Source of the DNA: a virus
Lineage: Duplodnaviria > Caudoviricetes
Length of the DNA: 41,810 nucleotides
Virus record (IMG/VR): IMGVR_UViG_3300011441_000003
Location: 1 to 41,810 of that record
Reading direction: 5' to 3' (one strand)
Shown here: piece after piece, positions 2,031 to 41,810 of the stretch
Position numbering within the stretch: position 1 is the stretch's first letter
Layout of the letters: every line of letters starts with the position of its first letter
Notes under the pieces: generated by a model
What the model was told of the DNA's origin: nothing
Seen by the model: the letters and a program-made list of their open reading frames with translations, nothing else
Databases searched by the model: none
Program-made: the position numbers and the translations under genes

Positions 2031-2255
2031 CTAGCGGTCGACTGCAAAATTCTTATTAACTTCCATCAGCTTCTGAAGGAAGTGCTCTGCCTTTTTGAGA
2101 TCATCAAGTCCACCTTTAGTCCTCCAGCGCATGACGTACTTGAGAATCTGCGCCTCGAGGTAGGGTATTTCATTTGCTATCACCACGTCCCAATGTTGAA
2201 TTGGCTGTGCGTAGTGGGTTCCACCGATTTGGCGGGCGTTGGCTGCTTTTGCCAT
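2031..2255 (-). CDS. DUF3310 (SaV-like) protein
   Basis: QIGGTHY...KYVMRWRTKGGLDDLKKA signature; CAGGAG RBS. Confidence 0.85.
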   Translation of the reverse strand: MAKAANARQIGGTHYAQPIQHWDVVIANEIPYLEAQILKYVMRWRTKGGLDDLKKAEHFLQKLMEVNKNFAVDR

Positions 2256-2332
2256 TTTATCTCCTGTAACGGTTGGTCAGGACGCGCTGTGACGCGTCAA
2301 CGGTGCGTGGCTAAGGGTGCGGTATGCACTAT

Positions 2333-3262
2333 TTACCGCTCGATATACCTCTTACATGCGAGCTTCCAATCCTGAGCTTGACAAGCGTCGAATCTTGATT
2401 CTAAGATTGGCAAAGCTACCCCCTGGAAGAATGGCTCGGAGAACGGGCCGCGTTCTCCATCCACTACTCGCTCGCACTCACTTAACCACCCCCTCAGCGT
2501 TCCTTGAATTAGAGGATAGGGCTCCACTCCCACTTCCTCATAAGTCTCACAATATGGGGGCACGTCGAGGAAATGCCAGTGCCTTTCGTAGATGTGGAGG
2601 TTGTTAGTGATTTGATGCATTTGCCCCATCTTCAACCCGACTTCGTGGGCGATTAACTCAAATAAGAAACTAAAGTGGACAACATTAGACCCGAGAGCTC
2701 CCCACACTAAGTCGTTGGACCTATTACACACGGTCATGTTTAGACTGTCGCCCCTACGTCTAAAGTAGATGTGAGTATTGCATGGGATGTCTTTTGATAG
2801 ATCATTCCCCAAGTCAAGTTCGGGGCACCACATGCTGAGCACAACTCTGCGGCTCCATGAGTCTCGCTTTAGTTCTTCGCACACACGTAAGATTTGATCT
2901 AAACCGTGGCCTTTGTGGTCTGCTGGCTTGGGGCTATAGTGCCTCCAACGAAAACCGTATGCACCATGAAGTGTAGTTCCGTGTTCACTAAACTCACGCA
3001 TACGGGGGTTGTACTGTGAAATCCAGTCTACATCTCTGCGTCCTGCCATCATCCAGAGACACTCAGCGAAGTGAAAGACTGGATTTTCCTTTCTCTCCTT
3101 GCAGAATAGTACTCTGCGCTCTGGGCTCACCGTAGTGAGAATGACAGGTTCTTGGATAGTCTTTACTTTTCCGTTCCTAGATTCCTCATCAAATCCACAA
3201 ACTTTCATGGCCCATAGTGCGTCATGAAACAAAGCCCCAACATCGTTACGGATTATCTGCAT
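2333..3262 (-). CDS. Thymidylate-synthase-family enzyme, probable dUMP hydroxymethylase
   Basis: GAYGFRWR, catalytic DIPCN, RSNDLVWGALGSN (Asn at the dUMP-specificity position), NNLHIY; divergent from canonical ThyA. Confidence 0.88.
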   Translation of the reverse strand: MQIIRNDVGALFHDALWAMKVCGFDEESRNGKVKTIQEPVILTTVSPERRVLFCKERKENPVFHFAECLWMMAGRRDVDWISQYNPRMREFSEHGTTLHGAYGFRWRHYSPKPADHKGHGLDQILRVCEELKRDSWSRRVVLSMWCPELDLGNDLSKDIPCNTHIYFRRRGDSLNMTVCNRSNDLVWGALGSNVVHFSFLFELIAHEVGLKMGQMHQITNNLHIYERHWHFLDVPPYCETYEEVGVEPYPLIQGTLRGWLSECERVVDGERGPFSEPFFQGVALPILESRFDACQAQDWKLACKRYIER

Positions 3263-3422
3263 TGTCCATTTCCCTTACGGTTAATTCATTGTCTTTGGCG
3301 AACTTTTCCGCCTCTTCTTTATTGGAAAAGACCTCCACCTTCCAATCGTTGTCAATAGAAATGACAGCAGTAATTCGCCCATCTGGGTACTTAAATCTAA
3401 GTATGAGATTACCGACGGGCAT
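3246..3422 (-). CDS. Hypothetical protein (58 aa)
   Basis: MPVGNLILRFKY...; overlaps both neighbours inside the modification operon. Confidence 0.6.
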   Translation of the reverse strand: MPVGNLILRFKYPDGRITAVISIDNDWKVEVFSNKEEAEKFAKDNELTVREMDNADNP

Positions 3423-4221
3423 GATATCTCTGCTTTGGAGTTCCCTGTCCAGTATGCGCCTTCCAGTACTTACTAAACTCACAACACACGTTCTGGAAGT
3501 CCTGCATGTGGAGTGGTGTCTGCGTAATTTCAAAAACCTGCGCGTACACTTTTTGGGCAACACGCAGGAAATGTCCCTCAGGAAGGTCAGGAATGCCTGT
3601 GACCGCGCGGAGACCGCGCAGGCTACCTGGGCCTACTGCCGCCCACGTTTGCCAATCCAGGGCGCTTCTGAGGGGTTCGACGTACTTTAGATCTGCCACA
3701 ACTTGCGCCGCGAGGAAAGTCCCTAGACCCTTAAACTCCATAAGCTTTGAATGGAAATACTGAAGGGTGTCCCCCATCGTCGGACTTAGTCCCGAGCTGA
3801 AGACCTTCGTGGCGAGATCTACAATGTAATCCACTTTGTCCATGGAAACGCCACAGGTGGTGACTACATACGCAGGGTTTAGAATCTTAAGCCCGCGATC
3901 TCTACGCGCCTTAATTCGTTCACGGATATCCATGTTATTCCACAGAGCGGGGAATCCGACTTCGGCTAGGCACTCGGGGTTATTTAGTAACCGAGCAAGA
4001 ACCATAGCAGCGGTTAAGTTCTTTGATTCTTGGAATGGAATGCGCCAGTTCGCGGCTATCCATTTCGTAACCTTGTCGTCCTCACGGCATACGTTGCAGA
4101 AGCGGTAGTTCGCAAGGATAGGGTCTGAGGTCCAAGGCGGGGCAGCTCCAGCTTCCTTCTTCACACGAATAGCCTCGCGCTCAGTAATCCAATGGGCCAT
4201 CAGCTTAATTCGCCACCGCAT
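3409..4221 (-). CDS. aGPT-Pplase1 / 5-hmdU DNA kinase helical-domain family protein (HhH-glycosylase-like fold)
   Basis: PWTSDPILANYRFCNVCREDD signature, HhH-like KGLGTFLAAQVVADLKY, GPGS, QNVCCEFSKY; GAGGGGAGG RBS before ATG 4221. Confidence 0.88.
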   Translation of the reverse strand: MRWRIKLMAHWITEREAIRVKKEAGAAPPWTSDPILANYRFCNVCREDDKVTKWIAANWRIPFQESKNLTAAMVLARLLNNPECLAEVGFPALWNNMDIRERIKARRDRGLKILNPAYVVTTCGVSMDKVDYIVDLATKVFSSGLSPTMGDTLQYFHSKLMEFKGLGTFLAAQVVADLKYVEPLRSALDWQTWAAVGPGSLRGLRAVTGIPDLPEGHFLRVAQKVYAQVFEITQTPLHMQDFQNVCCEFSKYWKAHTGQGTPKQRYHARR

Positions 4222-4993
4222 GTCGCCTCCCCTCTTCGTATGCAGATTTCCATGCAATCACTACATCCTTCCTTGCTTGCCCTCCCCATGCAGTCTTTGT
4301 TTCCTTATCTACTACTCGCACGAAATCTGGAAACTTCGCTTGCAGAGTTTCAGCAGCTTTAGCCTGAACTTCCATAGTGCGATAAGTGGAGCAACCTCCC
4401 TCAGAGTTACTACCTCCTTGATTTTGCACCATCCAGTTAATGGTTAGGTGCGGCTCTCCGAGAAGTAAGAGCGAAAGTTGAACATAGAAGTCCTCCATGA
4501 CTTCCATGTCCGTGAATGAAACTCCATACTCACAGAGTTTATCTGCTCGGAAGGCTAAAGCGCGCAGGGCGCGAGTGTTAGACACGTATGCCTCAGTACG
4601 CCGATTTCCCCCCTCGCGTGGCGCGATAGCAACGTGAACGTAGTCGTTTAACTTTCTCTCCACATCCTCAATTACTCGTATAATGTCCAAGTCCGTGGGA
4701 GTGGTGAATTTAGTTGGGTCGTCATTACGACGAATAGCGAAAGTGAGGTCATCGTCTAACATCAAGAGTTTCGGATTTTCCTGACTCAGCGCCCAATCGA
4801 CAGTAAATTGCCGCGCCATTCCTATTCCTTTATAGTCAGCGGGCATCTTCAAAATCTGCGGATGTACGCTCTTATAACTTTCGTACTCCGAGCTATCTAC
4901 TACGAGCCAAACTTTCTCACGAATTACAGAGGGGAGCCCCCGAAGGGTGATCTGCCGCGTAGCTCGAGCTTTGCTTGGAATAGCAATTAGCAC
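4205..4993 (-). CDS. GT-A glycosyltransferase, TAGT/JGT/GREB1-like
   Basis: IAIPSKAR, GIGMARQ, LMLDDD (DxD), MEDF, GGCSTYRT; true start likely GTG 4993 after AAGGAGAG. Confidence 0.82.
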   Translation of the reverse strand: MLIAIPSKARATRQITLRGLPSVIREKVWLVVDSSEYESYKSVHPQILKMPADYKGIGMARQFTVDWALSQENPKLLMLDDDLTFAIRRNDDPTKFTTPTDLDIIRVIEDVERKLNDYVHVAIAPREGGNRRTEAYVSNTRALRALAFRADKLCEYGVSFTDMEVMEDFYVQLSLLLLGEPHLTINWMVQNQGGSNSEGGCSTYRTMEVQAKAAETLQAKFPDFVRVVDKETKTAWGGQARKDVVIAWKSAYEEGRRHAVAN

Positions 4994-5037: not shown

Positions 5038-5385
5038 TTACTCCGCTGCGGGAACGCCTTCGCCGGCCTTCTTCGCTCTTGCTTTCTTTTCCACCATCTT
5101 CGGGGTGTAGCCCGCGATGGTGATGTATCCACGCGCCGAATCCCACGCCAGATCACCGTAAGTGCCGCCGAGACCAATGAAGTCTCCTACGGTGGCTGAG
5201 GCATTGTAGAATTCGAAACGGGCGTGCGACTTGCTGCTAGCACGCTTCGGATTGGCCGGAACATTCAGCGTCAGAACCGCAGCCTTGTCGAAGTTCTTGC
5301 TGGTTCGGTCACGCGGCGTGCCTTCTGGTTCCGCCTTTACCTTCTTGCCTTTCTTGGGCTTCACTTCTTGTACGTCTTCGCTCAT
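5038..5385 (-). CDS. Small basic putative DNA-binding protein (115 aa)
   Basis: Lys-rich tails around the core NPKRASSKSHARF...GG..GDLAWD..RGYI; strong RBS, own promoter and terminator. Confidence 0.75.
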   Translation of the reverse strand: MSEDVQEVKPKKGKKVKAEPEGTPRDRTSKNFDKAAVLTLNVPANPKRASSKSHARFEFYNASATVGDFIGLGGTYGDLAWDSARGYITIAGYTPKMVEKKARAKKAGEGVPAAE

Positions 5386-7098: not shown

Positions 7099-7721
7099 GG
7101 CCCTCCCTTTTCTCTAGAGAAAGTACACCAGCGACAATGTACTCCTGGACGTGGGCTGAAGAAAGTGTCTTGGAGCATAGGTTTCGCTGCTTCTTTCCAG
7201 TACTCTTGCTCAGCAGTTAAGTCTTCGCGCGCCAGTTCTGAACTCTGCGCGTGGTCTTGATCTGCGTAGATCGTTTCAATCTTAGCACGCTGCACTCCTG
7301 GGAACATGGAGAGGGCAAGGACTAAGTATAGGCGACGTTGATTTACATGGTCGTCATACACTTTGCCAGTCTTCCACTCCCCCATGTTTATTTCTTCAAC
7401 CGCACATCGAAAAGCGTCGACTACTCCACGAACCCACGCAGTGGGATCTTTCCACTCAACGGGTTCCCACTCCGAATTCAACGCAATTCGCATTTCCGCA
7501 ACGTAAGTCTGCGCCCGCATGTCCTCAGCTTTAAGACGCGTAAATTCCCGAATGTTACCACTCCACTTCCCGGTGGCGAGATAGGACTCGAGTTGTGCGT
7601 GAATATCTGTTCCACGCGCTGCGGCAGGGCCAGCAGGGTCAGCTCTCTGCTCCACCACTCGGAACTTATACGCCGTGGGGCATTTCTTATAGAGGTTATA
7701 CTGGCTAAGACTCCAAGGCAT
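7083..7721 (-). CDS. Cas4/RecB-like PD-(D/E)XK exonuclease with probable Fe-S cluster
   Basis: N-terminal CP, RGTDIH, GVVD...EWKTG, C-terminal CRWC...C. Confidence 0.88.
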   Translation of the reverse strand: MPWSLSQYNLYKKCPTAYKFRVVEQRADPAGPAAARGTDIHAQLESYLATGKWSGNIREFTRLKAEDMRAQTYVAEMRIALNSEWEPVEWKDPTAWVRGVVDAFRCAVEEINMGEWKTGKVYDDHVNQRRLYLVLALSMFPGVQRAKIETIYADQDHAQSSELAREDLTAEQEYWKEAAKPMLQDTFFSPRPGVHCRWCTFSREKGGPCQVA

Positions 7722-9471
7722 GTAGTTCTCCGAAATTAGGACCGATGAAACCTTCGCTACGCATTGGAACGTCTAGCCTGTCTCTATTCATTACTTCTTT
7801 AAGGTGGGCCATCGCGCCCCTCTCTTTTCCCAACTCAACACTGAGGTTTATCTCATCGTACAAGGTTGCCTTCATATCCCCGTCAGAGCTATGCTCTGCG
7901 TGCCACTCTATGATTGTTTGCTTCGTAAGATCAGCCGCGCTAGGTTGTATGAGGTAGTTCAACAACTTGTAAAGGAAGTCCATCATGCGGCCATTCACCA
8001 GCTTTGGCGGTTCAGGAAGATATAATCTTCCTCCCCATGTTCTTAAAGGCAAACCATTACGCCCTCTACGACGTAATGCGTCGCTCAGAATACGTATGCC
8101 TGGAATAGCCGCCATGTAAGCCTCTCGCATTTCCTTCGCTTTAGAGTGGTCACACCCAAGCTGAGAGGCAAGGCCGCTAACTCCAGCTCCATAGATAGTG
8201 GAGAAAGCCGTTATCTTTACATCTTTACGCGGCAAATCTAGTCCTGCAATACTAAGGATTAAATCCTTAGCCATTTCATGAGGGTCAAGGTCTGGATTTT
8301 CTTGATACGCCCGCATAAGATCGCCATCTTCGTAGTGAGCCAAAATTCTAATCTCCTGGCTTGAAAAGTCACGCTTCACCCAGACATGCCCTTCTTCAGG
8401 AAGTAAGAAACGGCGCATAAGAGGAATCTCGGGTAGTCCCGCTGGAGCTCTTGCCCTTAGTTCGTTTGGCGGATTAGTGAGGTTAGGGTGGTCGCAACTT
8501 ATACGCCCAGACCTTGTTCCCTTACCTTCTCCCCTCACTTGATTCCAGTTAGGGTGAAGTCTTCCCTTCGATGCCCACGCTTGATTATACCATGAAATGC
8601 CGAAGGTATTGAGGCACGTGTCAAGCCCGCTGCGGTACAGCAGCAGAGCTAGCACTTCCGGGTTGGTCACAGCGCGTTGTAGAGCATCCTTGGCTGTACT
8701 TCTACGCCCTGTAGGGGTTAGCGGCCAACTTTCCACCATGCCCGCTTTGTCCAAAGCTTGAGCTAGTTCATCCGGACTGTCGACATTAAAGGTGCAGCTT
8801 AGAGCTTTGAAAATTCTAGAGTCACACTCTTTAAGCGCAGCCGTCATGTCTTTGATAGACTGCTCCAAGGCTGGCATATCTACTCGCAACCCTCGCCGCT
8901 CCGCATCTACGAGGATGGGGCAAAGTAATTGCTCACGCCGATATGCCTCTCCCATGCGCTGTGCTTCGATCTTAGGCATTAAATGTTCGTAGAGCGCAAA
9001 CGTGCGATTTACGTCTCCTATCGCATAAGGGGCTACGATTTCAACTGGCGCTTTGCAAATGAAAGCGCCGAAGTTTTTCTTCGTACTTCCCTCTACGTGC
9101 TTAAGTATCCAATCACGGAGTGCATCTTGCTCCTCCGGCTTTTGTCCTAGAATACGTTCAGCCGAGGGTTTAAGACTCAGATTTGGAGCGTGTGGGTCGT
9201 GAAGGAAGATTAAGTAGGTAGTGTCGTGGACTTTAAGCGGGTCGGGAGGAGGGAGATTAAAGTAGTGCCGCGCCACTGACACATCGAACTTCGCAGAGTG
9301 GAAGAGCATATCGCCGCTCCACGCTCTTTCAAGAGCAGCGCCCATTCCAACCCACGAAGTTTCGTAGTATTTAGCTCCGTCAGGTTGGCGAACAGCAAGC
9401 CCTACAGGCTTCGGGGGAAAGGCGCTTGTATTCCCCGATATTGCCTCAGTTTCGAAGTCGAGGGTGAACAT
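7705..9471 (-). CDS. DNA polymerase, family A, with 3'-5' exonuclease
   Basis: ExoI DFET, TRSGRIS..PN, motif A DFSSQEIR, motif B RKDVKITAFSTIYG, motif C TLYDE. Confidence 0.95.
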   Translation of the reverse strand: MFTLDFETEAISGNTSAFPPKPVGLAVRQPDGAKYYETSWVGMGAALERAWSGDMLFHSAKFDVSVARHYFNLPPPDPLKVHDTTYLIFLHDPHAPNLSLKPSAERILGQKPEEQDALRDWILKHVEGSTKKNFGAFICKAPVEIVAPYAIGDVNRTFALYEHLMPKIEAQRMGEAYRREQLLCPILVDAERRGLRVDMPALEQSIKDMTAALKECDSRIFKALSCTFNVDSPDELAQALDKAGMVESWPLTPTGRRSTAKDALQRAVTNPEVLALLLYRSGLDTCLNTFGISWYNQAWASKGRLHPNWNQVRGEGKGTRSGRISCDHPNLTNPPNELRARAPAGLPEIPLMRRFLLPEEGHVWVKRDFSSQEIRILAHYEDGDLMRAYQENPDLDPHEMAKDLILSIAGLDLPRKDVKITAFSTIYGAGVSGLASQLGCDHSKAKEMREAYMAAIPGIRILSDALRRRGRNGLPLRTWGGRLYLPEPPKLVNGRMMDFLYKLLNYLIQPSAADLTKQTIIEWHAEHSSDGDMKATLYDEINLSVELGKERGAMAHLKEVMNRDRLDVPMRSEGFIGPNFGELHALES

Positions 9472-11222: not shown

Positions 11223-11590
11223 GGCGTAACCTCATATATCCACTGACGCGCGATCTCGCATAGAGCCACGAAAACGGCGTCCTTGTCGCGCTCAAGCTGC
11301 CCGAGTTGTGCATAGGGCACAAGATCAGGATGTGTCTTAGCTTCGCGGTCGTATTTCTCACCGTACACCCAGCCCATCAAGAAATAGGCTTGCATCCAAC
11401 TACCGTGGAGTTCCTCGGGCGACATAGACCGCTGCTCGCCCATTTGACGTTCGATCACGGCAAGGAATTGGACTCGGAAGGCATCCTCGCGCTCAGCCCA
11501 TAACACTGGAATGATCGGCGCGTTAGCGGCTTGTGCTGCGAGTCGGGCGGCGTTGTAGACAAACTCAGCACGATGTTCTGTCAGGTTCAC
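11219..11590 (-). CDS. RyR (ryanodine receptor repeat) domain protein
   Basis: PEELHGSWM...GWVYGEKYDREAKTHPDLVPYAQL...ERDKD; GTG start supplied by the 35-bp repeat. Confidence 0.85.
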   Translation of the reverse strand: MNLTEHRAEFVYNAARLAAQAANAPIIPVLWAEREDAFRVQFLAVIERQMGEQRSMSPEELHGSWMQAYFLMGWVYGEKYDREAKTHPDLVPYAQLGQLERDKDAVFVALCEIARQWIYEVTP

Positions 11591-11619
11591 TTCACTTTCC
11601 TCCTTCGTTGGGCTGCGGC
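11585..11619 (-). repeat. 35-bp junction repeat R-C, copy 1
   Basis: GCCGCAGCCCAACGAAGGAGGAAAGTGAAGTGAAC; contains RBS, stop and start. Confidence 0.95.
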
Positions 11620-11787
11620 ATGCCTCCATTTGATCGTTACAGGACCGTCCTGCGCGTACATAAGGGCATAGTGATTGATCTCGCGCTCGGTATCTTTTCT
11701 GCTAGAAGTTTCGACGCAAGCCACCATCATTCCGTCTTGCCATAGTTCGGCCCGCTCGACAGCGCGTAGAGTCTTGGATGGTTTCAT
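11587..11787 (-). CDS. Cassette protein B1 (66 aa)
   Basis: MKPSKTLRAVERA...RHAAAQRRRKVK. Confidence 0.7.
   Translation of the reverse strand: MKPSKTLRAVERAELWQDGMMVACVETSSRKDTEREINHYALMYAQDGPVTIKWRHAAAQRRRKVK
11748..11777 (-). repeat. 30-bp repeat R-N, copy 1
   Basis: 28/30 identical to 12085-12114; encodes KTLRAVERA. Confidence 0.9.
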
Positions 11788-11960
11788 GGCTGAGTTTCTT
11801 TCGGTTCACACAGCCAGCCGGAGCAATCACCTCCGATACTGGGAATAGGATCATGGACGTAGTGATAGCCCCGCTCGCCGCACCGCTCGCAAACTGGAGC
11901 ACACTTCTCTGCAAGCTGCTTTGCCGTGACGCGATTCTGCATACGCTGTTTCCTGTTCAC
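11784..11960 (-). CDS. Small Cys-rich protein (58 aa)
   Basis: GTG start in the repeat; CERCG..GYHY...C; ATGA overlap downstream. Confidence 0.7.
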   Translation of the reverse strand: MNRKQRMQNRVTAKQLAEKCAPVCERCGERGYHYVHDPIPSIGGDCSGWLCEPKETQP

Positions 11961-11989
11961 TTCACTTTCCTCCTTCGTTGGGCTGCGGC
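11955..11989 (-). repeat. 35-bp junction repeat R-C, copy 2
   Basis: Identical to 11585-11619. Confidence 0.95.
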
Positions 11990-12118
11990 GTGGCGGGCAC
12001 CTTCCTGCCAAGCGTCCCACAGCGCTTCAATTGTGAGCGGGTGCTGCTCGGCTATGTAATACACCTTCAGCCACGCTTCAAACGCGGCCCGTTCGACAGC
12101 GCGTAGGGTCTTGGTCAT
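11957..12118 (-). CDS. Cassette protein B2 (53 aa, not in the ORF track)
   Basis: MTKTLRAVERAAFEAWLKVYYIAEQHPLTIEALWDAWQEGARHAAAQRRRKVK. Confidence 0.7.
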   Translation of the reverse strand: MTKTLRAVERAAFEAWLKVYYIAEQHPLTIEALWDAWQEGARHAAAQRRRKVK

Positions 12119-12281
12119 GGCTAATCTCGGTCACGGTGTATGGCCCCTTATCGGCTAGCATATAGGCAGCGTCTTCTGCCCATTCTTGAGCGGAGACAGT
12201 AGTTGTGTCCTCATATTCTTTGATTACTTCTACATCTTCACCAGTATGAGGGTCACGATACCTGATGTGAAACATCTTCAT
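12078..12281 (-). CDS. Hypothetical acidic protein (67 aa)
   Basis: MKMFHIRYRDP...; RBS supplied by repeat copy 3. Confidence 0.7.
   Translation of the reverse strand: MKMFHIRYRDPHTGEDVEVIKEYEDTTTVSAQEWAEDAAYMLADKGPYTVTEISHDQDPTRCRTGRV
12085..12114 (-). repeat. 30-bp repeat R-N, copy 2
   Basis: 28/30 identical to 11748-11777. Confidence 0.9.
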
Positions 12282-12310
12282 TTCACTTTCCTCCTTCGTT
12301 GGGCTTCGGC
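12276..12310 (-). repeat. 35-bp junction repeat R-C, copy 3
   Basis: 32/35 identical to copies 1 and 2. Confidence 0.9.
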
Positions 12311-12888
12311 TGAGATTGGGAGAGGCGATACCATTCGCTGATTCGTGGAAGCCATGTGCGGAGGGCTTGAGCCTGATGCCGCTCATCGTGCTCGCACGCC
12401 ATTTCGAGGGTGAATAAAACCTCGTGGTCATCCCCCACGTCGGGAGGCGCAGTTTCGCTCATGACGTTCTCCTGATGTTTTTCGGGATAACGGAAATATG
12501 CTGCGGAAGAACTTTCACCACCCCTTTGTGGATATGGGTGTGGTGTTTCTGGCAGACCCAAACCACTTCCAATATTTGCCAGCGCTTTGGCCGCGATTCT
12601 ATGCAGAGGATTGCTCGACGGAGCTTCTTCAACGATTTGCTGAAGCGCCGCACGGAGCTGCCCCGCCTCTGCGTGATCCGATAGGGCGCGGCGGTTCCAA
12701 TGCTCAATGGCTTCTGTCGGCGATTTGAATCGACCGAGGTTTGTACTGGCGCAGAGTATGCAATTCACCTTGTGGAATGTGGCTTGCTTCCACTCCTGCT
12801 CACGCACCGTCGAATCGATATACTTGATTGTTCCCAATGCTGCTTTCCCACCACAAAACGGACACGACTTCAACCCGCTCTCAGTCAT
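12283..12888 (-). CDS. Lar-family restriction-alleviation domain protein with C-terminal extension
   Basis: LKSCPFCGG...CILC...EAIEHWNRRA; ATG 12888 overlaps the upstream TGA. Confidence 0.8.
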   Translation of the reverse strand: MTESGLKSCPFCGGKAALGTIKYIDSTVREQEWKQATFHKVNCILCASTNLGRFKSPTEAIEHWNRRALSDHAEAGQLRAALQQIVEEAPSSNPLHRIAAKALANIGSGLGLPETPHPYPQRGGESSSAAYFRYPEKHQENVMSETAPPDVGDDHEVLFTLEMACEHDERHQAQALRTWLPRISEWYRLSQSQPKPNEGGK

Positions 12889-13106
12889 AGTTGGCTCCAA
12901 TAGCAAACAGACCTCCACAAAGGGTAGCCCGAACGATTCCAAATGCTTAGAGAGTACACCGCCATTGTGTTCGGGCGTAATTTATCACACTCTGCTAAGG
13001 AAAGAGGCTTCGCGCCGACAGTTACCGCTGTGAAGGGCGCAGCTTCAACACTGCAACTTCCAACGGCAATCCCCGCGCAACAGAGGAGCACCCAGATGTC
13101 CCTCAT
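12885..13106 (-). CDS. Small exported hypothetical protein (73 aa)
   Basis: Signal-peptide-like MRDIWVLLCCAGIAVGSCSVEA; ATGA overlaps at both ends. Confidence 0.65.
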   Translation of the reverse strand: MRDIWVLLCCAGIAVGSCSVEAAPFTAVTVGAKPLSLAECDKLRPNTMAVYSLSIWNRSGYPLWRSVCYWSQL

Positions 13107-13873
13107 GCTGCCATTCTTTCTGCGTAATCCCACAAACCACGATTGATGTTAATCTGCTCTTTAATCGCCTTCACGCCGCGAATGTGGCTTCTGCGCCCTG
13201 TGAAACTACGAGCGTCGTGATTCTTTGAAAGTATGTTTTCCTGCACCACGTTGAAGACTGTCCACGCATCGTTGGCTGCGTCTTCAGGACGGTGACGCGT
13301 CAGGATTTGCTCCGTGGTTAGTAGCGGGGCTATGCCATGGTAGCGTAGTTCTAAAGCTCTGAGGGCGTAATTGACGCGCTCGGCATGGCTCAACTGCCGC
13401 GCAGCCATGCGCTCTACAGCGCCACGGAGAAGGGGCATTTCTTCGGTTACTATCTTAGCTGCCCCACTCTGCACAGCCTCCAACGTAGCTTGGAATCCAG
13501 CGTGCCGTACTGAAGCCCCTGCAAAGACAGAGCCAACCACTAAACCGTTCAGGCACAGAAAGGAGAAAAGCCCAGAGTAAAGACGGTACATCGCAGAACC
13601 ATCATGCCCATTGACTAGCACCAATTCAGGATAGAGCTCGTGACCCCTTGGATCTTGAATTGGAGATTCCGAACCGTGGCGCATTCGAATCATATGCCGC
13701 GCGTAGGGAGCGCGCTCCGCGCTTCTGCTTCTAGTTTGTCTTGCATCCTTAATCTCCCAGCCCTGAGATTGCAGCCCCTCTAATATCGGCTGCGTAGGGA
13801 TGAAAACGTAGCTCGAAGATGTACCTTCGTACGGCTTTGTAGCGTAGATTGCAGGTAGGTCTTTAAGGTTCAT
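13103..13873 (-). CDS. DUF932/DUF945 family protein
   Basis: YVFIPT...HMIRMR...ELVLVNGHDGS...GLF..LCLNG...WTVFNVVQEN. Confidence 0.88.
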   Translation of the reverse strand: MNLKDLPAIYATKPYEGTSSSYVFIPTQPILEGLQSQGWEIKDARQTRSRSAERAPYARHMIRMRHGSESPIQDPRGHELYPELVLVNGHDGSAMYRLYSGLFSFLCLNGLVVGSVFAGASVRHAGFQATLEAVQSGAAKIVTEEMPLLRGAVERMAARQLSHAERVNYALRALELRYHGIAPLLTTEQILTRHRPEDAANDAWTVFNVVQENILSKNHDARSFTGRRSHIRGVKAIKEQININRGLWDYAERMAA

Positions 13874-14652
13874 ACCGCCTCCGGGAAAACTAGTTCATAC
13901 CCATTCCAAGCACAGTCCGGGATATGCTGGCGAACGAAGGCTAGAATGCCGGCGTCCAGCGAGACGCACTTGGCCGCGTAGTCGGCGTACAGCGAGGCGC
14001 GCTTGGCCTTGTAGTCGGCGTCCAGCGAGGCGCACTTGGCCGCGTAGTCGGCGTCCAGCGAGGCGCGCTTGGCCTTGTAGTCGGCGTCCAGCGGGGCGCA
14101 CTTGGCCTCGTAGTCGGCGTCCAGCGGGGCGCACTTGGCCTTGTAGTCGGCGTCCAGCGAGGCGTACTTGGCCTCGTAGTCGGCGTCCAGCGAGGCGCGC
14201 TTGGCCTTGTAGTCGGCGTCCAGCGGGGCGCACTTGGCCTCGTAGTCGGCGTACAGCGGGACGCACTTGGCCGTGTAGTCGGCGTACAGCGGGGCGCACT
14301 TGGCCTCGTAGTCGGCGTACAGCGGGGCGCACTTGGCCTCGTAGTCGGCGTCCAGCGAGGCGCGCTTGGCCGCGTAGTCGGCGCCTAGCGAGACGCGCTT
14401 GGCCTTGTAGTCGGCGTCCAGCGGGGCGCGCTTGGCCGCGTAGTCGGCGTCCAGCGCATTCGTCATGAACGGCAGATAAATCATATTGTGCAGCCGCGTC
14501 GAGATTTCGTGGTCCGGTTTCTCTCGCTTGACGTAGGCGACGCGATCCGCCACATTGTGAGATTTCTCGAATAGCTGTCCATGGTGCAGAAAGGCGAAAT
14601 AGCCTTTCGTTGGCCCGACGTAATCGGGACGGCCTGGGAAAAGTTCGTTCAT
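13870..14652 (-). CDS. Hendecad tandem-repeat protein (260 aa)
   Basis: 15 copies of ADYxAKxxxLx between unique N-terminal (HH...KP..E...RL) and C-terminal (PDCAWNG) parts; AAGGAG RBS. Confidence 0.85.
   Translation of the reverse strand: MNELFPGRPDYVGPTKGYFAFLHHGQLFEKSHNVADRVAYVKREKPDHEISTRLHNMIYLPFMTNALDADYAAKRAPLDADYKAKRVSLGADYAAKRASLDADYEAKCAPLYADYEAKCAPLYADYTAKCVPLYADYEAKCAPLDADYKAKRASLDADYEAKYASLDADYKAKCAPLDADYEAKCAPLDADYKAKRASLDADYAAKCASLDADYKAKRASLYADYAAKCVSLDAGILAFVRQHIPDCAWNGYELVFPEAV
13954..14448 (-). repeat. 15 x 33-bp GC-rich coding tandem repeat
   Basis: Typical unit GCCGACTACGAGGCCAAGTGCGCCCCGCTGGAC, varying at a few fixed positions. Confidence 0.97.
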
Positions 14653-17508: not shown

Positions 17509-17583
17509 GGACGAAAGTAAGCGCCCACTTCGAGGACGAAAGTAAGTGCCCACTTCGGAAGGACGAAAGTAAGCGCCCACTTC
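17509..17583 (+). repeat. 3 x 23-bp direct repeat
   Basis: GGACGAAAGTAAGYGCCCACTTC at 17509, 17534, 17561. Confidence 0.95.
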
Positions 17584-17602
17584 AACTGTTACAATTTCCC
17601 GC

Positions 17603-41226: not shown

Positions 41227-41501
41227 GGCGAACTAGAATCATCGGAATAGTCCTTCTGCTGTCTAGCTGCGCGAGCTACTGGACATGCGATGGACCGGAT
41301 CTCTCAGCCCATACGATTGGGCCGATCATTCTTACCCCGCAAGGGACGGAACGAAAGTGTGGGCCGACGCCTCCGGGTTGGATTACGCACGGCTGCACGG
41401 ACTGTACGGCGCAACAGTGTGTTATTTATCTCTCTGAGAACGCCCCCCGATGGGGGAAGGAGCACGAATGGAAGCACGCGAAAGGATGTAATCACCAATG
41501 A
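41220..41501 (+). CDS. Small lipoprotein with HExxHxxGxxH motif (93 aa)
   Basis: MLRRTRIIGIVLLLSSC lipobox; C-terminal HEWKHAKGCNH. Confidence 0.75.
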   Translation: MLRRTRIIGIVLLLSSCASYWTCDGPDLSAHTIGPIILTPQGTERKCGPTPPGWITHGCTDCTAQQCVIYLSENAPRWGKEHEWKHAKGCNHQ

Positions 41502-41810
41502 ACCCCCTTAAGCTATTCCTTAATCTCGTACTGGCGTTTCTTTTCGCAGCGCTCGTTGTGGCGATGGCGCTTTGTGTAATCGTCTTAATCGCCAAGCCCG
41601 TTCATGGTGCAGAGAATTCACCGTGGACGCGTGACGGCAACATCCGCCAAGGTCTTGTCATTGGTTTGTTTCTTGTGGACTGGAGGCAGACGCAGCACAT
41701 CGTCAAGAATCCTGGGCACTATAAGGAGGAAAATATCTTCCTAGGCGACCATCCGTCCATGCGGAGGTTGAACATTTATTGGACGACGTTGATTCCGCTG
41801 CATACGTGGG
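41498..41810 (+). CDS. Membrane/exported hypothetical protein, 5' part; continues across the junction to 278 (about 155 aa in total)
   Basis: ATG at 41498 overlaps the upstream TGA; hydrophobic N-terminus MNPLKLFLNLVLAFLFAALVVAMALCVIVLIA; in frame with ORF 72..278. Confidence 0.8.
   Translation, partial: MNPLKLFLNLVLAFLFAALVVAMALCVIVLIAKPVHGAENSPWTRDGNIRQGLVIGLFLVDWRQTQHIVKNPGHYKEENIFLGDHPSMRRLNIYWTTLIPLHTW
41688..41810 (+). repeat. Terminal direct repeat, copy 2
   Basis: Identical to 1-123 and lies inside an ORF. Confidence 0.95.

Follow-up and report, generated by a model that had tools for sequence, protein, structure and literature searches.

A kinase-less phage cassette predicted to place a sugar on 5-hydroxymethyluracil in DNA

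The gene cassette analysed here lies on the minus strand of a viral genome (Duplodnaviria; Caudoviricetes), IMG/VR record IMGVR_UViG_3300011441_000003, positions 1 to 41,810, the whole of which we call the window. It combines a thymidylate synthase (TS) homologue bearing the signature of a dUMP hydroxymethylase, a TAGT-family GT-A glycosyltransferase, a clade 1 aGPT-Pplase protein (aGPT-Pplase1) and a DUF3310 protein. The same type of hydroxymethylase and aGPT-Pplase1 occur in the kinase-dependent thymidine-hypermodifying phages M6, PaMx11, ViI, PhiW-14, SP10 and SH-Ab 15599 (PMC5889632, PMC8989533, PMC13458397). In SP10, PhiW-14, M6 and ViI, DNA is first made with 5-hydroxymethyluracil (hmU) throughout, and nothing but T and the hypermodified base is then present in virions, which contain no hmU; the M6 kinase marks ~23% of hmU in vitro (PMC8989533). 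Conversion of hmU to T is said to occur 'in situ', by an enzyme stated to be unknown (PMC5889632).

Sugars reach DNA bases by other described routes. The second-glucose enzyme of T6 is itself a TAGT, which acts after a TS-type hydroxymethylase (PMC13390438), and the phage GT-A DNA enzymes surveyed in bioRxiv 2023.12.21.572611 share an R..DDD..EDF motif set with the trypanosome base J enzyme JGT, have TarP as top fold match, and are about evenly divided between TET-type and TS neighbours; an earlier note on this DNA, which held that TAGT/JGT enzymes normally act after TET/JBP oxidation, was thus too narrow on this point. SP-15, YerA41 and Carin-5 likewise carry a sugar on the T-position base, in large myoviruses and through a hydroxypentyl linker and phosphate, in contrast to the direct hmU glycoside predicted here (PMC12686479). 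Pelagiphage podoviruses encode TS and aG/PT-PPlase1 together with a beta-glucosyl-HMC-alpha-glucosyltransferase near PolA, an arrangement said only to maybe broaden the system; the accessible parts of that paper contain neither an hmU-glycoside proposal nor a measurement (PMC9599517). In the literature searched (subscription papers lay outside its scope) we found no direct hmU glycoside measured in phage DNA and no function for clade 1. Iyer 2013 may already contain the prediction.

We regard the cassette as real, intact and widespread, and as a putative sugar branch of thymidine hypermodification, its gene set already noticed in print. That hmU is made as a nucleotide, incorporated, and then glycosylated in DNA appears probable, a reading in which each chemical step is predicted from the genes, motifs, absences, linkage and tree described below. 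The features concerned are as follows.

5038..5385, minus strand: basic 115-aa protein, directly upstream of the TAGT gene, outside known families
4205..4993, minus strand: TAGT-family GT-A glycosyltransferase, 262 aa, GTG start (PF20691, E 1.3e-14; PHROG 842, E 1.1e-49)
3409..4221, minus strand: aGPT-Pplase clade 1 protein, 270 aa, stand-alone, helix-hairpin-helix (HhH) fold (PF18723, E 5.1e-35)
3246..3422, minus strand: 58-aa open reading frame (ORF), restricted to close relatives
2333..3262, minus strand: TS homologue with dUMP hydroxymethylase signature (PF00303, E 7.9e-27)
2031..2255, minus strand: DUF3310 protein, 74 aa (PF11753, E 1.7e-6; PHROG 236 'nucleotide kinase', E 7e-15)
7705..9471, minus strand: Family A DNA polymerase, in the same gene run (PF00476, E 4e-49)

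The first six genes follow one another in this order with mostly overlapping or near-abutting ends, and are bounded by genes for a SNF2-type helicase and a DNA ligase. All five ORFs that the earlier note placed at 2031..4993 were recovered there, tightly coupled and with the quoted motifs in their translations, although the upstream edge has to be moved, as the conserved 115-aa gene (5385-5038) belongs to the cassette too. The combination is common in relatives, and its co-location was already published (PMC9599517).

The TS homologue carries Asp158, Cys161, Asp184 and Asn193 at the positions of E. coli ThyA 143, 146, 169 and 177, a residue set identical to that of SPO1 gp29, SP10 gp188, the ViI enzyme and M6 gp58. 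In ThyA numbering, position 177 governs substrate choice and 143 the choice between hydroxymethyl and methyl, while D169N marks 5-hydroxy-dCMP synthases (PMC13326640). The protein has the TS fold, the catalytic Cys, Asp143, Asp169 and Asn177 of dUMP hydroxymethylases, and neither the Asp177 of dCMP hydroxymethylases nor the Asn169 of 5-hydroxy-dCMP synthases; by this signature it is a putative dUMP hydroxymethylase. It is 41% identical to M6 gp58, 36% to the phiJL001 homologue, 30% to that of SPO1 and 21% to T4 gp42. The same residue pattern recurs without exception in the 44 further linked TS sequences aligned from loci L001-L047, and 76 of 79 TS matches near TAGT loci parse as Asp/Asp/Asn, the remainder being two fragments and one mis-parse.

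The glycosyltransferase scores 55 bits against PF20691 (cut-off 27.5), its R10, D80-D81-D82 and E167-D168-F169 are kept in 14-15 of 15 homologues, and a structure model (pLDDT 92) gives TarP as top fold match (E 7.6e-7). Family score, R..DDD..EDF motifs and GT-A fold together make it TAGT/JGT-like; that JGT has these motifs too is taken from bioRxiv 2023.12.21.572611. PHROG 842 is named 'beta-glucosyl-HMC-alpha-glucosyltransferase', and the T6-type enzyme of that name belongs to the same family (~28% identity) and likewise works after a TS-type hydroxymethylase; the T6-type system, however, modifies C and uses glucose as acceptor, whereas the acceptor of the window TAGT is predicted to be a base hydroxyl. 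Because no first-step alpha-glucosyltransferase was found in the window phage, the acceptor is most simply the hmU hydroxyl, and the TAGT is predicted to glycosylate hmU in DNA on its hydroxymethyl oxygen.

Several functions of the described pathways were sought and not found. The complete record has no PF12851 match at E<=1, so that the TET/JBP component of the kinetoplastid pathway (JBP1/2 plus JGT) is absent; the predicted product class, an O-glycosyl-hmU, is that of base J, but the window phage would draw its hmU from nucleotides rather than from TET/JBP oxidation. Our own hidden Markov model (HMM) for the P-loop 5-hmdU DNA kinase, run on the circularised window translated in six frames, found none (best E 2.2). 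For the clade 2 amino-acid:DNA transferase (ADDT), PF18724 gave no match and our own profiles none either, at a sensitivity limited by one profile having missed ViI gp247. A search for aGPT-Pplase3 in the window was negative, as was one for the HD hydrolase with a profile built from relatives (best E 3.2). Pfam detected no methyltransferase, radical S-adenosylmethionine (SAM), pyridoxal phosphate (PLP), deaminase or dUTPase families among 68 of the 233 ORFs, a set spanning 96% of the window; the other 165 are mostly shadow frames. Like the kinase-dependent phages, then, the window has DUF3310 (M6 gp61) and a location beside the polymerase; unlike them it has a glycosyltransferase in the modifier slot, and no DNA kinase, clade 2 transferase, PLP, radical SAM or FAD tailoring gene, HD hydrolase or deaminase was found in it. 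These scans bear out the earlier note on the absence of TET/JBP, methyltransferase, radical SAM and PLP enzymes; its further claim that hmU kinase is missing stands for a kinase acting on DNA but not at the nucleotide level, where DUF3310 is a likely kinase.

Linkage was examined from both sides. On the TAGT side we used the best 80 of 162 IMG/VR loci, of which 77 extend 2.5 kb or more downstream; clustering gives 53 groups at 90% identity and 48 at 70%. The search seeds were aGPT-Pplase1-linked TAGTs, which biases the linkage upward. TS is present in all 77, aGPT-Pplase1 in 75, DUF3310 in 74, an HD hydrolase in 26 and a radical SAM gene in 5, while kinase plus clade 2 gene occur in a single locus. 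Anchored on aGPT-Pplase1 instead, 33 loci divide into 17 with kinase, 10 with TAGT, 5 with a GT-B-like protein and 1 with neither, none having both kinase and TAGT; the GT-B-like call was made by eye from motifs, with one weak Pfam match and atlas likeness for one of the five, which resembles T4 beta-glucosyltransferase (atlas score 0.95). Whole-record searches found no hmU kinase in any of 15 kinase-less records (the window and 14 others), with three of three controls positive, albeit part of the profile's training alignment; Pfam PF18748 independently finds the same three control kinases and agrees for the 14 records other than the window. We conclude that TAGT fills the slot which in sister phages is taken by the hmU DNA kinase, as an alternative modifier on a fixed core. 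The cultured phage phiJL001 (gp19, gp22, gp24, gp26), LuckyBarnes and the HTVC023P-type Pelagiphage clusters are members of the same system, having aGPT-Pplase1, TAGT and a dUMP-type hydroxymethylase and no kinase. LuckyBarnes, a cultured actinophage (L037, NC_047851, gp38-gp41: TS, two TAGT paralogues, aGPT-Pplase1), differs in its second TAGT gene and is a candidate for a disaccharide on hmU.

In the pathway that we propose, the TS homologue would convert dUMP to hydroxymethyl-dUMP, DUF3310 would phosphorylate this product, the phage polymerase would build the resulting nucleotide into DNA, and TAGT would move a sugar from a host NDP-sugar onto the hmU hydroxyl. The product would be base J or a sugar variant, obtained with neither TET nor DNA kinase. 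Hydroxymethylase, aGPT-Pplase1 and DUF3310 would form the fixed core, and the modifier gene would be interchangeable. Substitution of thymine is likely to be partial, because searches of the genome yielded neither a dTTP-depleting HD hydrolase nor a dCMP deaminase, and the likely purpose is shielding of the DNA from host nucleases. The TET-independent glycosylated hmU proposed in the earlier note thus gains support from the signature residues of the TS homologue, from a GT-A motif set that is intact and from linkage that stays constant among relatives, with the qualification that the donor sugar need not be glucose.

The role of aGPT-Pplase1 is less clear-cut. The protein matches PF18723 (now named HMUDK_hel) over residues 6-256 at 121.6 bits, full-length and with the conserved motifs of clade 1, including a Cys-Glu pair (Cys247-Glu248 in the window) that is invariant in 163 of 163 aGPT-Pplase1 sequences, beside kinase, GT-A or GT-B alike. 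On the aGPT-Pplase1 tree the partner label switches at least 7 times with Cys-Glu retained, and near-identical proteins adjoin different modifiers (L001/L002). Because Cys-Glu is unchanged whichever the neighbour, the job of the protein is likely to be independent of its partner. The earlier note had assigned it a non-canonical role, but clade 1 has no canonical one: transfer of amino acids or amines is shown for clade 2 only, and the clade 1 protein of M6, gp55, is dispensable for hypermodification (PMC8989533). Of the roles then offered, a second transferase fits poorly with a protein that is unchanged beside kinases and GT-B-like proteins, and an editor fits best of the three.

aGPT-Pplase1 is a tentative candidate for a kinase-independent converter of leftover hmU to T inside DNA, a clean-up role that we favour over others for it but that, taken by itself, is less likely than not. 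It is present in M6, ViI, PhiW-14, SP10 and SH-Ab 15599 and absent from SPO1 (all-hmU) and T4; it is this presence in converting phages and absence from SPO1 that makes it a candidate. The phage in which dT and dapT were found alongside a dTTPase (PMC13458397) also encodes clade 1, of which the accessible parts of that paper make no mention, and a clade 2 methylene has been trapped by borohydride as thymidine (PMC8989533). In such a clean-up, unmodified hmU would be flipped out, Cys247 would attack C6, Glu248 would aid loss of the hydroxyl, and reduction would yield thymine. Four points weigh against it. SP10, with no detectable clade 2 gene (L048:9652-14296, gp185-gp186), nevertheless makes glutamyl-T; published tests of clade 1 proteins in lysates mention no T, as far as text and legends go; no hydride donor is evident; and the window phage may contain T without any converter, because it has no dTTP-depleting gene. 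The joint proposition, a TET-free base J or sugar variant plus aGPT-Pplase1 as an hmU-to-T eraser common to all T-hypermodifying phages with interchangeable modifiers, is in our judgement rather unlikely as a whole.

Glycosyl-hmU may also be made as proposed while aGPT-Pplase1 serves as an hmU reader, a base flipper or a glycosylase excising unmodified hmU, which we rate as somewhat unlikely and which contests the clean-up chemistry alone, leaving the sugar step intact. In a structural search the top 23 rows are all HhH-type, mostly DNA glycosylases; a DNA ligase adjoins the cassette, and aGPT-Pplase1 has no reductant-binding domain. Set against excision or reading, the invariant Cys-Glu, which may correspond in position to the catalytic Cys of clade 2, suggests that the protein reacts covalently with the pyrimidine, and conversion is reported as 'in situ' (PMC5889632).

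The top row of that same search, the glycine:DNA transferase gp46, is more in keeping with a compound modification, in which the aGPT-Pplase1 Cys would activate hmU phosphate-free and add a small hydroxyl or amine metabolite, TAGT glycosylating the adduct, or the two acting in reverse order. The model here is the T6 TAGT, a second-sugar enzyme that glycosylates glucosyl-hydroxymethylcytosine (PMC13390438); retention of aGPT-Pplase1 in 75 of 77 TAGT loci and glutamyl-T synthesis in SP10 with clade 1 only point the same way. We nonetheless find this improbable, since TAGT and hydroxymethylase occur without aGPT-Pplase1 in MW202897 (whole record) and in L120 and L135 (within the flank), the Cys-Glu site is kept beside kinase and clade 2 pathways that have been fully rebuilt without clade 1, and near-identical aGPT-Pplase1 proteins stand next to the different modifiers of L001 and L002.

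That TAGT acts off DNA, whether on the free nucleotide, on a protein of the virion or on a molecule at the host surface, leaving only hmU and T in the DNA, would suit its closest solved fold, TarP being a teichoic-acid transferase, and the ~65% of phage glycosyltransferase matches that have no base-modification neighbour (bioRxiv 2023.12.21.572611); we consider it very unlikely given the 77 of 77 linkage to a hydroxymethylase, the exchange of TAGT with a DNA kinase in one slot, and the action of TAGT family members on DNA. That the TS homologue works on dCMP, for a T-even-like glycosyl-hydroxymethylcytosine, or is an ordinary thymidylate synthase can hardly hold: a sequence search of solved structures puts the CMP hydroxymethylase MilA first, and the LuckyBarnes gene is named a dCMP hydroxymethylase in PMC6588365, but the window protein has Asn, not the Asp of T4 gp42 and MilA, at the position that sets specificity, a hydroxymethylase-like Asp at position 143 and greater identity to M6 gp58 than to T4 gp42, and the LuckyBarnes residues are themselves of dUMP type, contrary to the printed reading.

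If the predicted glycosylation is true, thymidine hypermodification gains a sugar branch that looks roughly as frequent as its amino-acid counterpart (15 glycosyltransferase against 17 kinase among the 33 loci, a small and biased sample), and the cassette offers a source of hmU-tagging enzymes. The cultured phiJL001 and LuckyBarnes make the sugar-hmU prediction directly testable. The kinase-less cassette is also a natural experiment in which aGPT-Pplase1 is kept without the kinase, pointing to the hmU-to-T step; conversely, Rhodoferax phage P26218 (L059) and MW202897 (L036) carry cassettes with aGPT-Pplase1 absent from the whole record, and so provide natural controls for its function.

Among the accessory genes, the DUF3310 protein matches the domain of the T7 gp1.7-type nucleotide kinase, to which PMC10700055 ties DUF3310, has homologues in M6 gp61 and phiJL001 gp26, and from this likeness is likely to be a nucleotide kinase for hm-dUMP. 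The 115-aa protein has no Pfam or PHROG match, and an atlas search places it in unnamed viral clusters only; judged by composition it likely binds DNA, and a homologue occurs in 68 of 77 TAGT loci (by an HMM that included phiJL001 gp18). The 58-aa ORF, matched in 8 of the 10 nearest TAGT loci and in none of the 33 aGPT-Pplase1-anchored loci, is likely accessory. The Family A DNA polymerase, whose neighbourhood is alike in relatives, would from its context be the enzyme that incorporates hm-dUTP.

Other features of the relatives deserve record. GT-B-like proteins stand in the modifier slot upstream of aGPT-Pplase1 at L002:2831-3877, L004:5067-5990, L005:5088-5999, L016:4748-5980 and L024:4282-5430; they form at least three sequence groups and have no PHROG match, with PfkB and SIS sugar-pathway genes close by in L005 and an FkbM methyltransferase in L024. 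Some TAGT cassettes enclose a radical SAM/SPASM gene (L017:4922-5986, L072, L090, L101, L102, L117), which suggests sugar tailoring. L128:2845-9157 contains in a single run a clade 2 gene, an FAD oxidoreductase-like gene, a kinase, aGPT-Pplase1, TAGT, a second aGPT-Pplase1 and TS; its TAGT start looks like a TS start, and we take the locus for a recombinant of two cassettes or a mis-assembly. RefSeq labels proven hmU DNA kinases 'terminase small subunit' (M6 gp54, L035:6414-6977; ViI gp67, L052:8204-8866; SP10 gp186, L048:12383-14296).

The 41.7-kb phage genome is complete, as the earlier note had supposed: the contig ends share a 123-nt overlap, and the record is listed as direct-terminal-repeat and 100% complete. 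By profile matches, the plus strand carries structural genes of podovirus-like type, while the replication genes are encoded on the minus strand. An ORF of ~155 aa with a hydrophobic N-terminus spans the terminal overlap (41498-41687 joined to 1-278). A 33-nt tandem repeat of ~20 units (13851-14555) lies within a 260-aa ORF (14652-13870) that has a weak Mu Gam-like match at its end. Near-identical 38-nt repeats (11585-11622, 11955-11992, 12276-12313) and 30-nt repeats (11748-11777, 12085-12114) sit at boundaries of small early genes and contain ribosome-binding-like sequence; they are possible gene-shuffling sites. Three non-coding 24-nt direct repeats at 17509-17584, after the primase-helicase and close to the GC-skew switch, are a possible replication origin. 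Finally, two observations suggest that base modification protects the genome only partially: a Lar-like restriction-alleviation match at 12283-12942 (PF14354 E 9e-10), and the fact that 6-mer palindromes are avoided throughout the genome (mean observed/expected 0.57).

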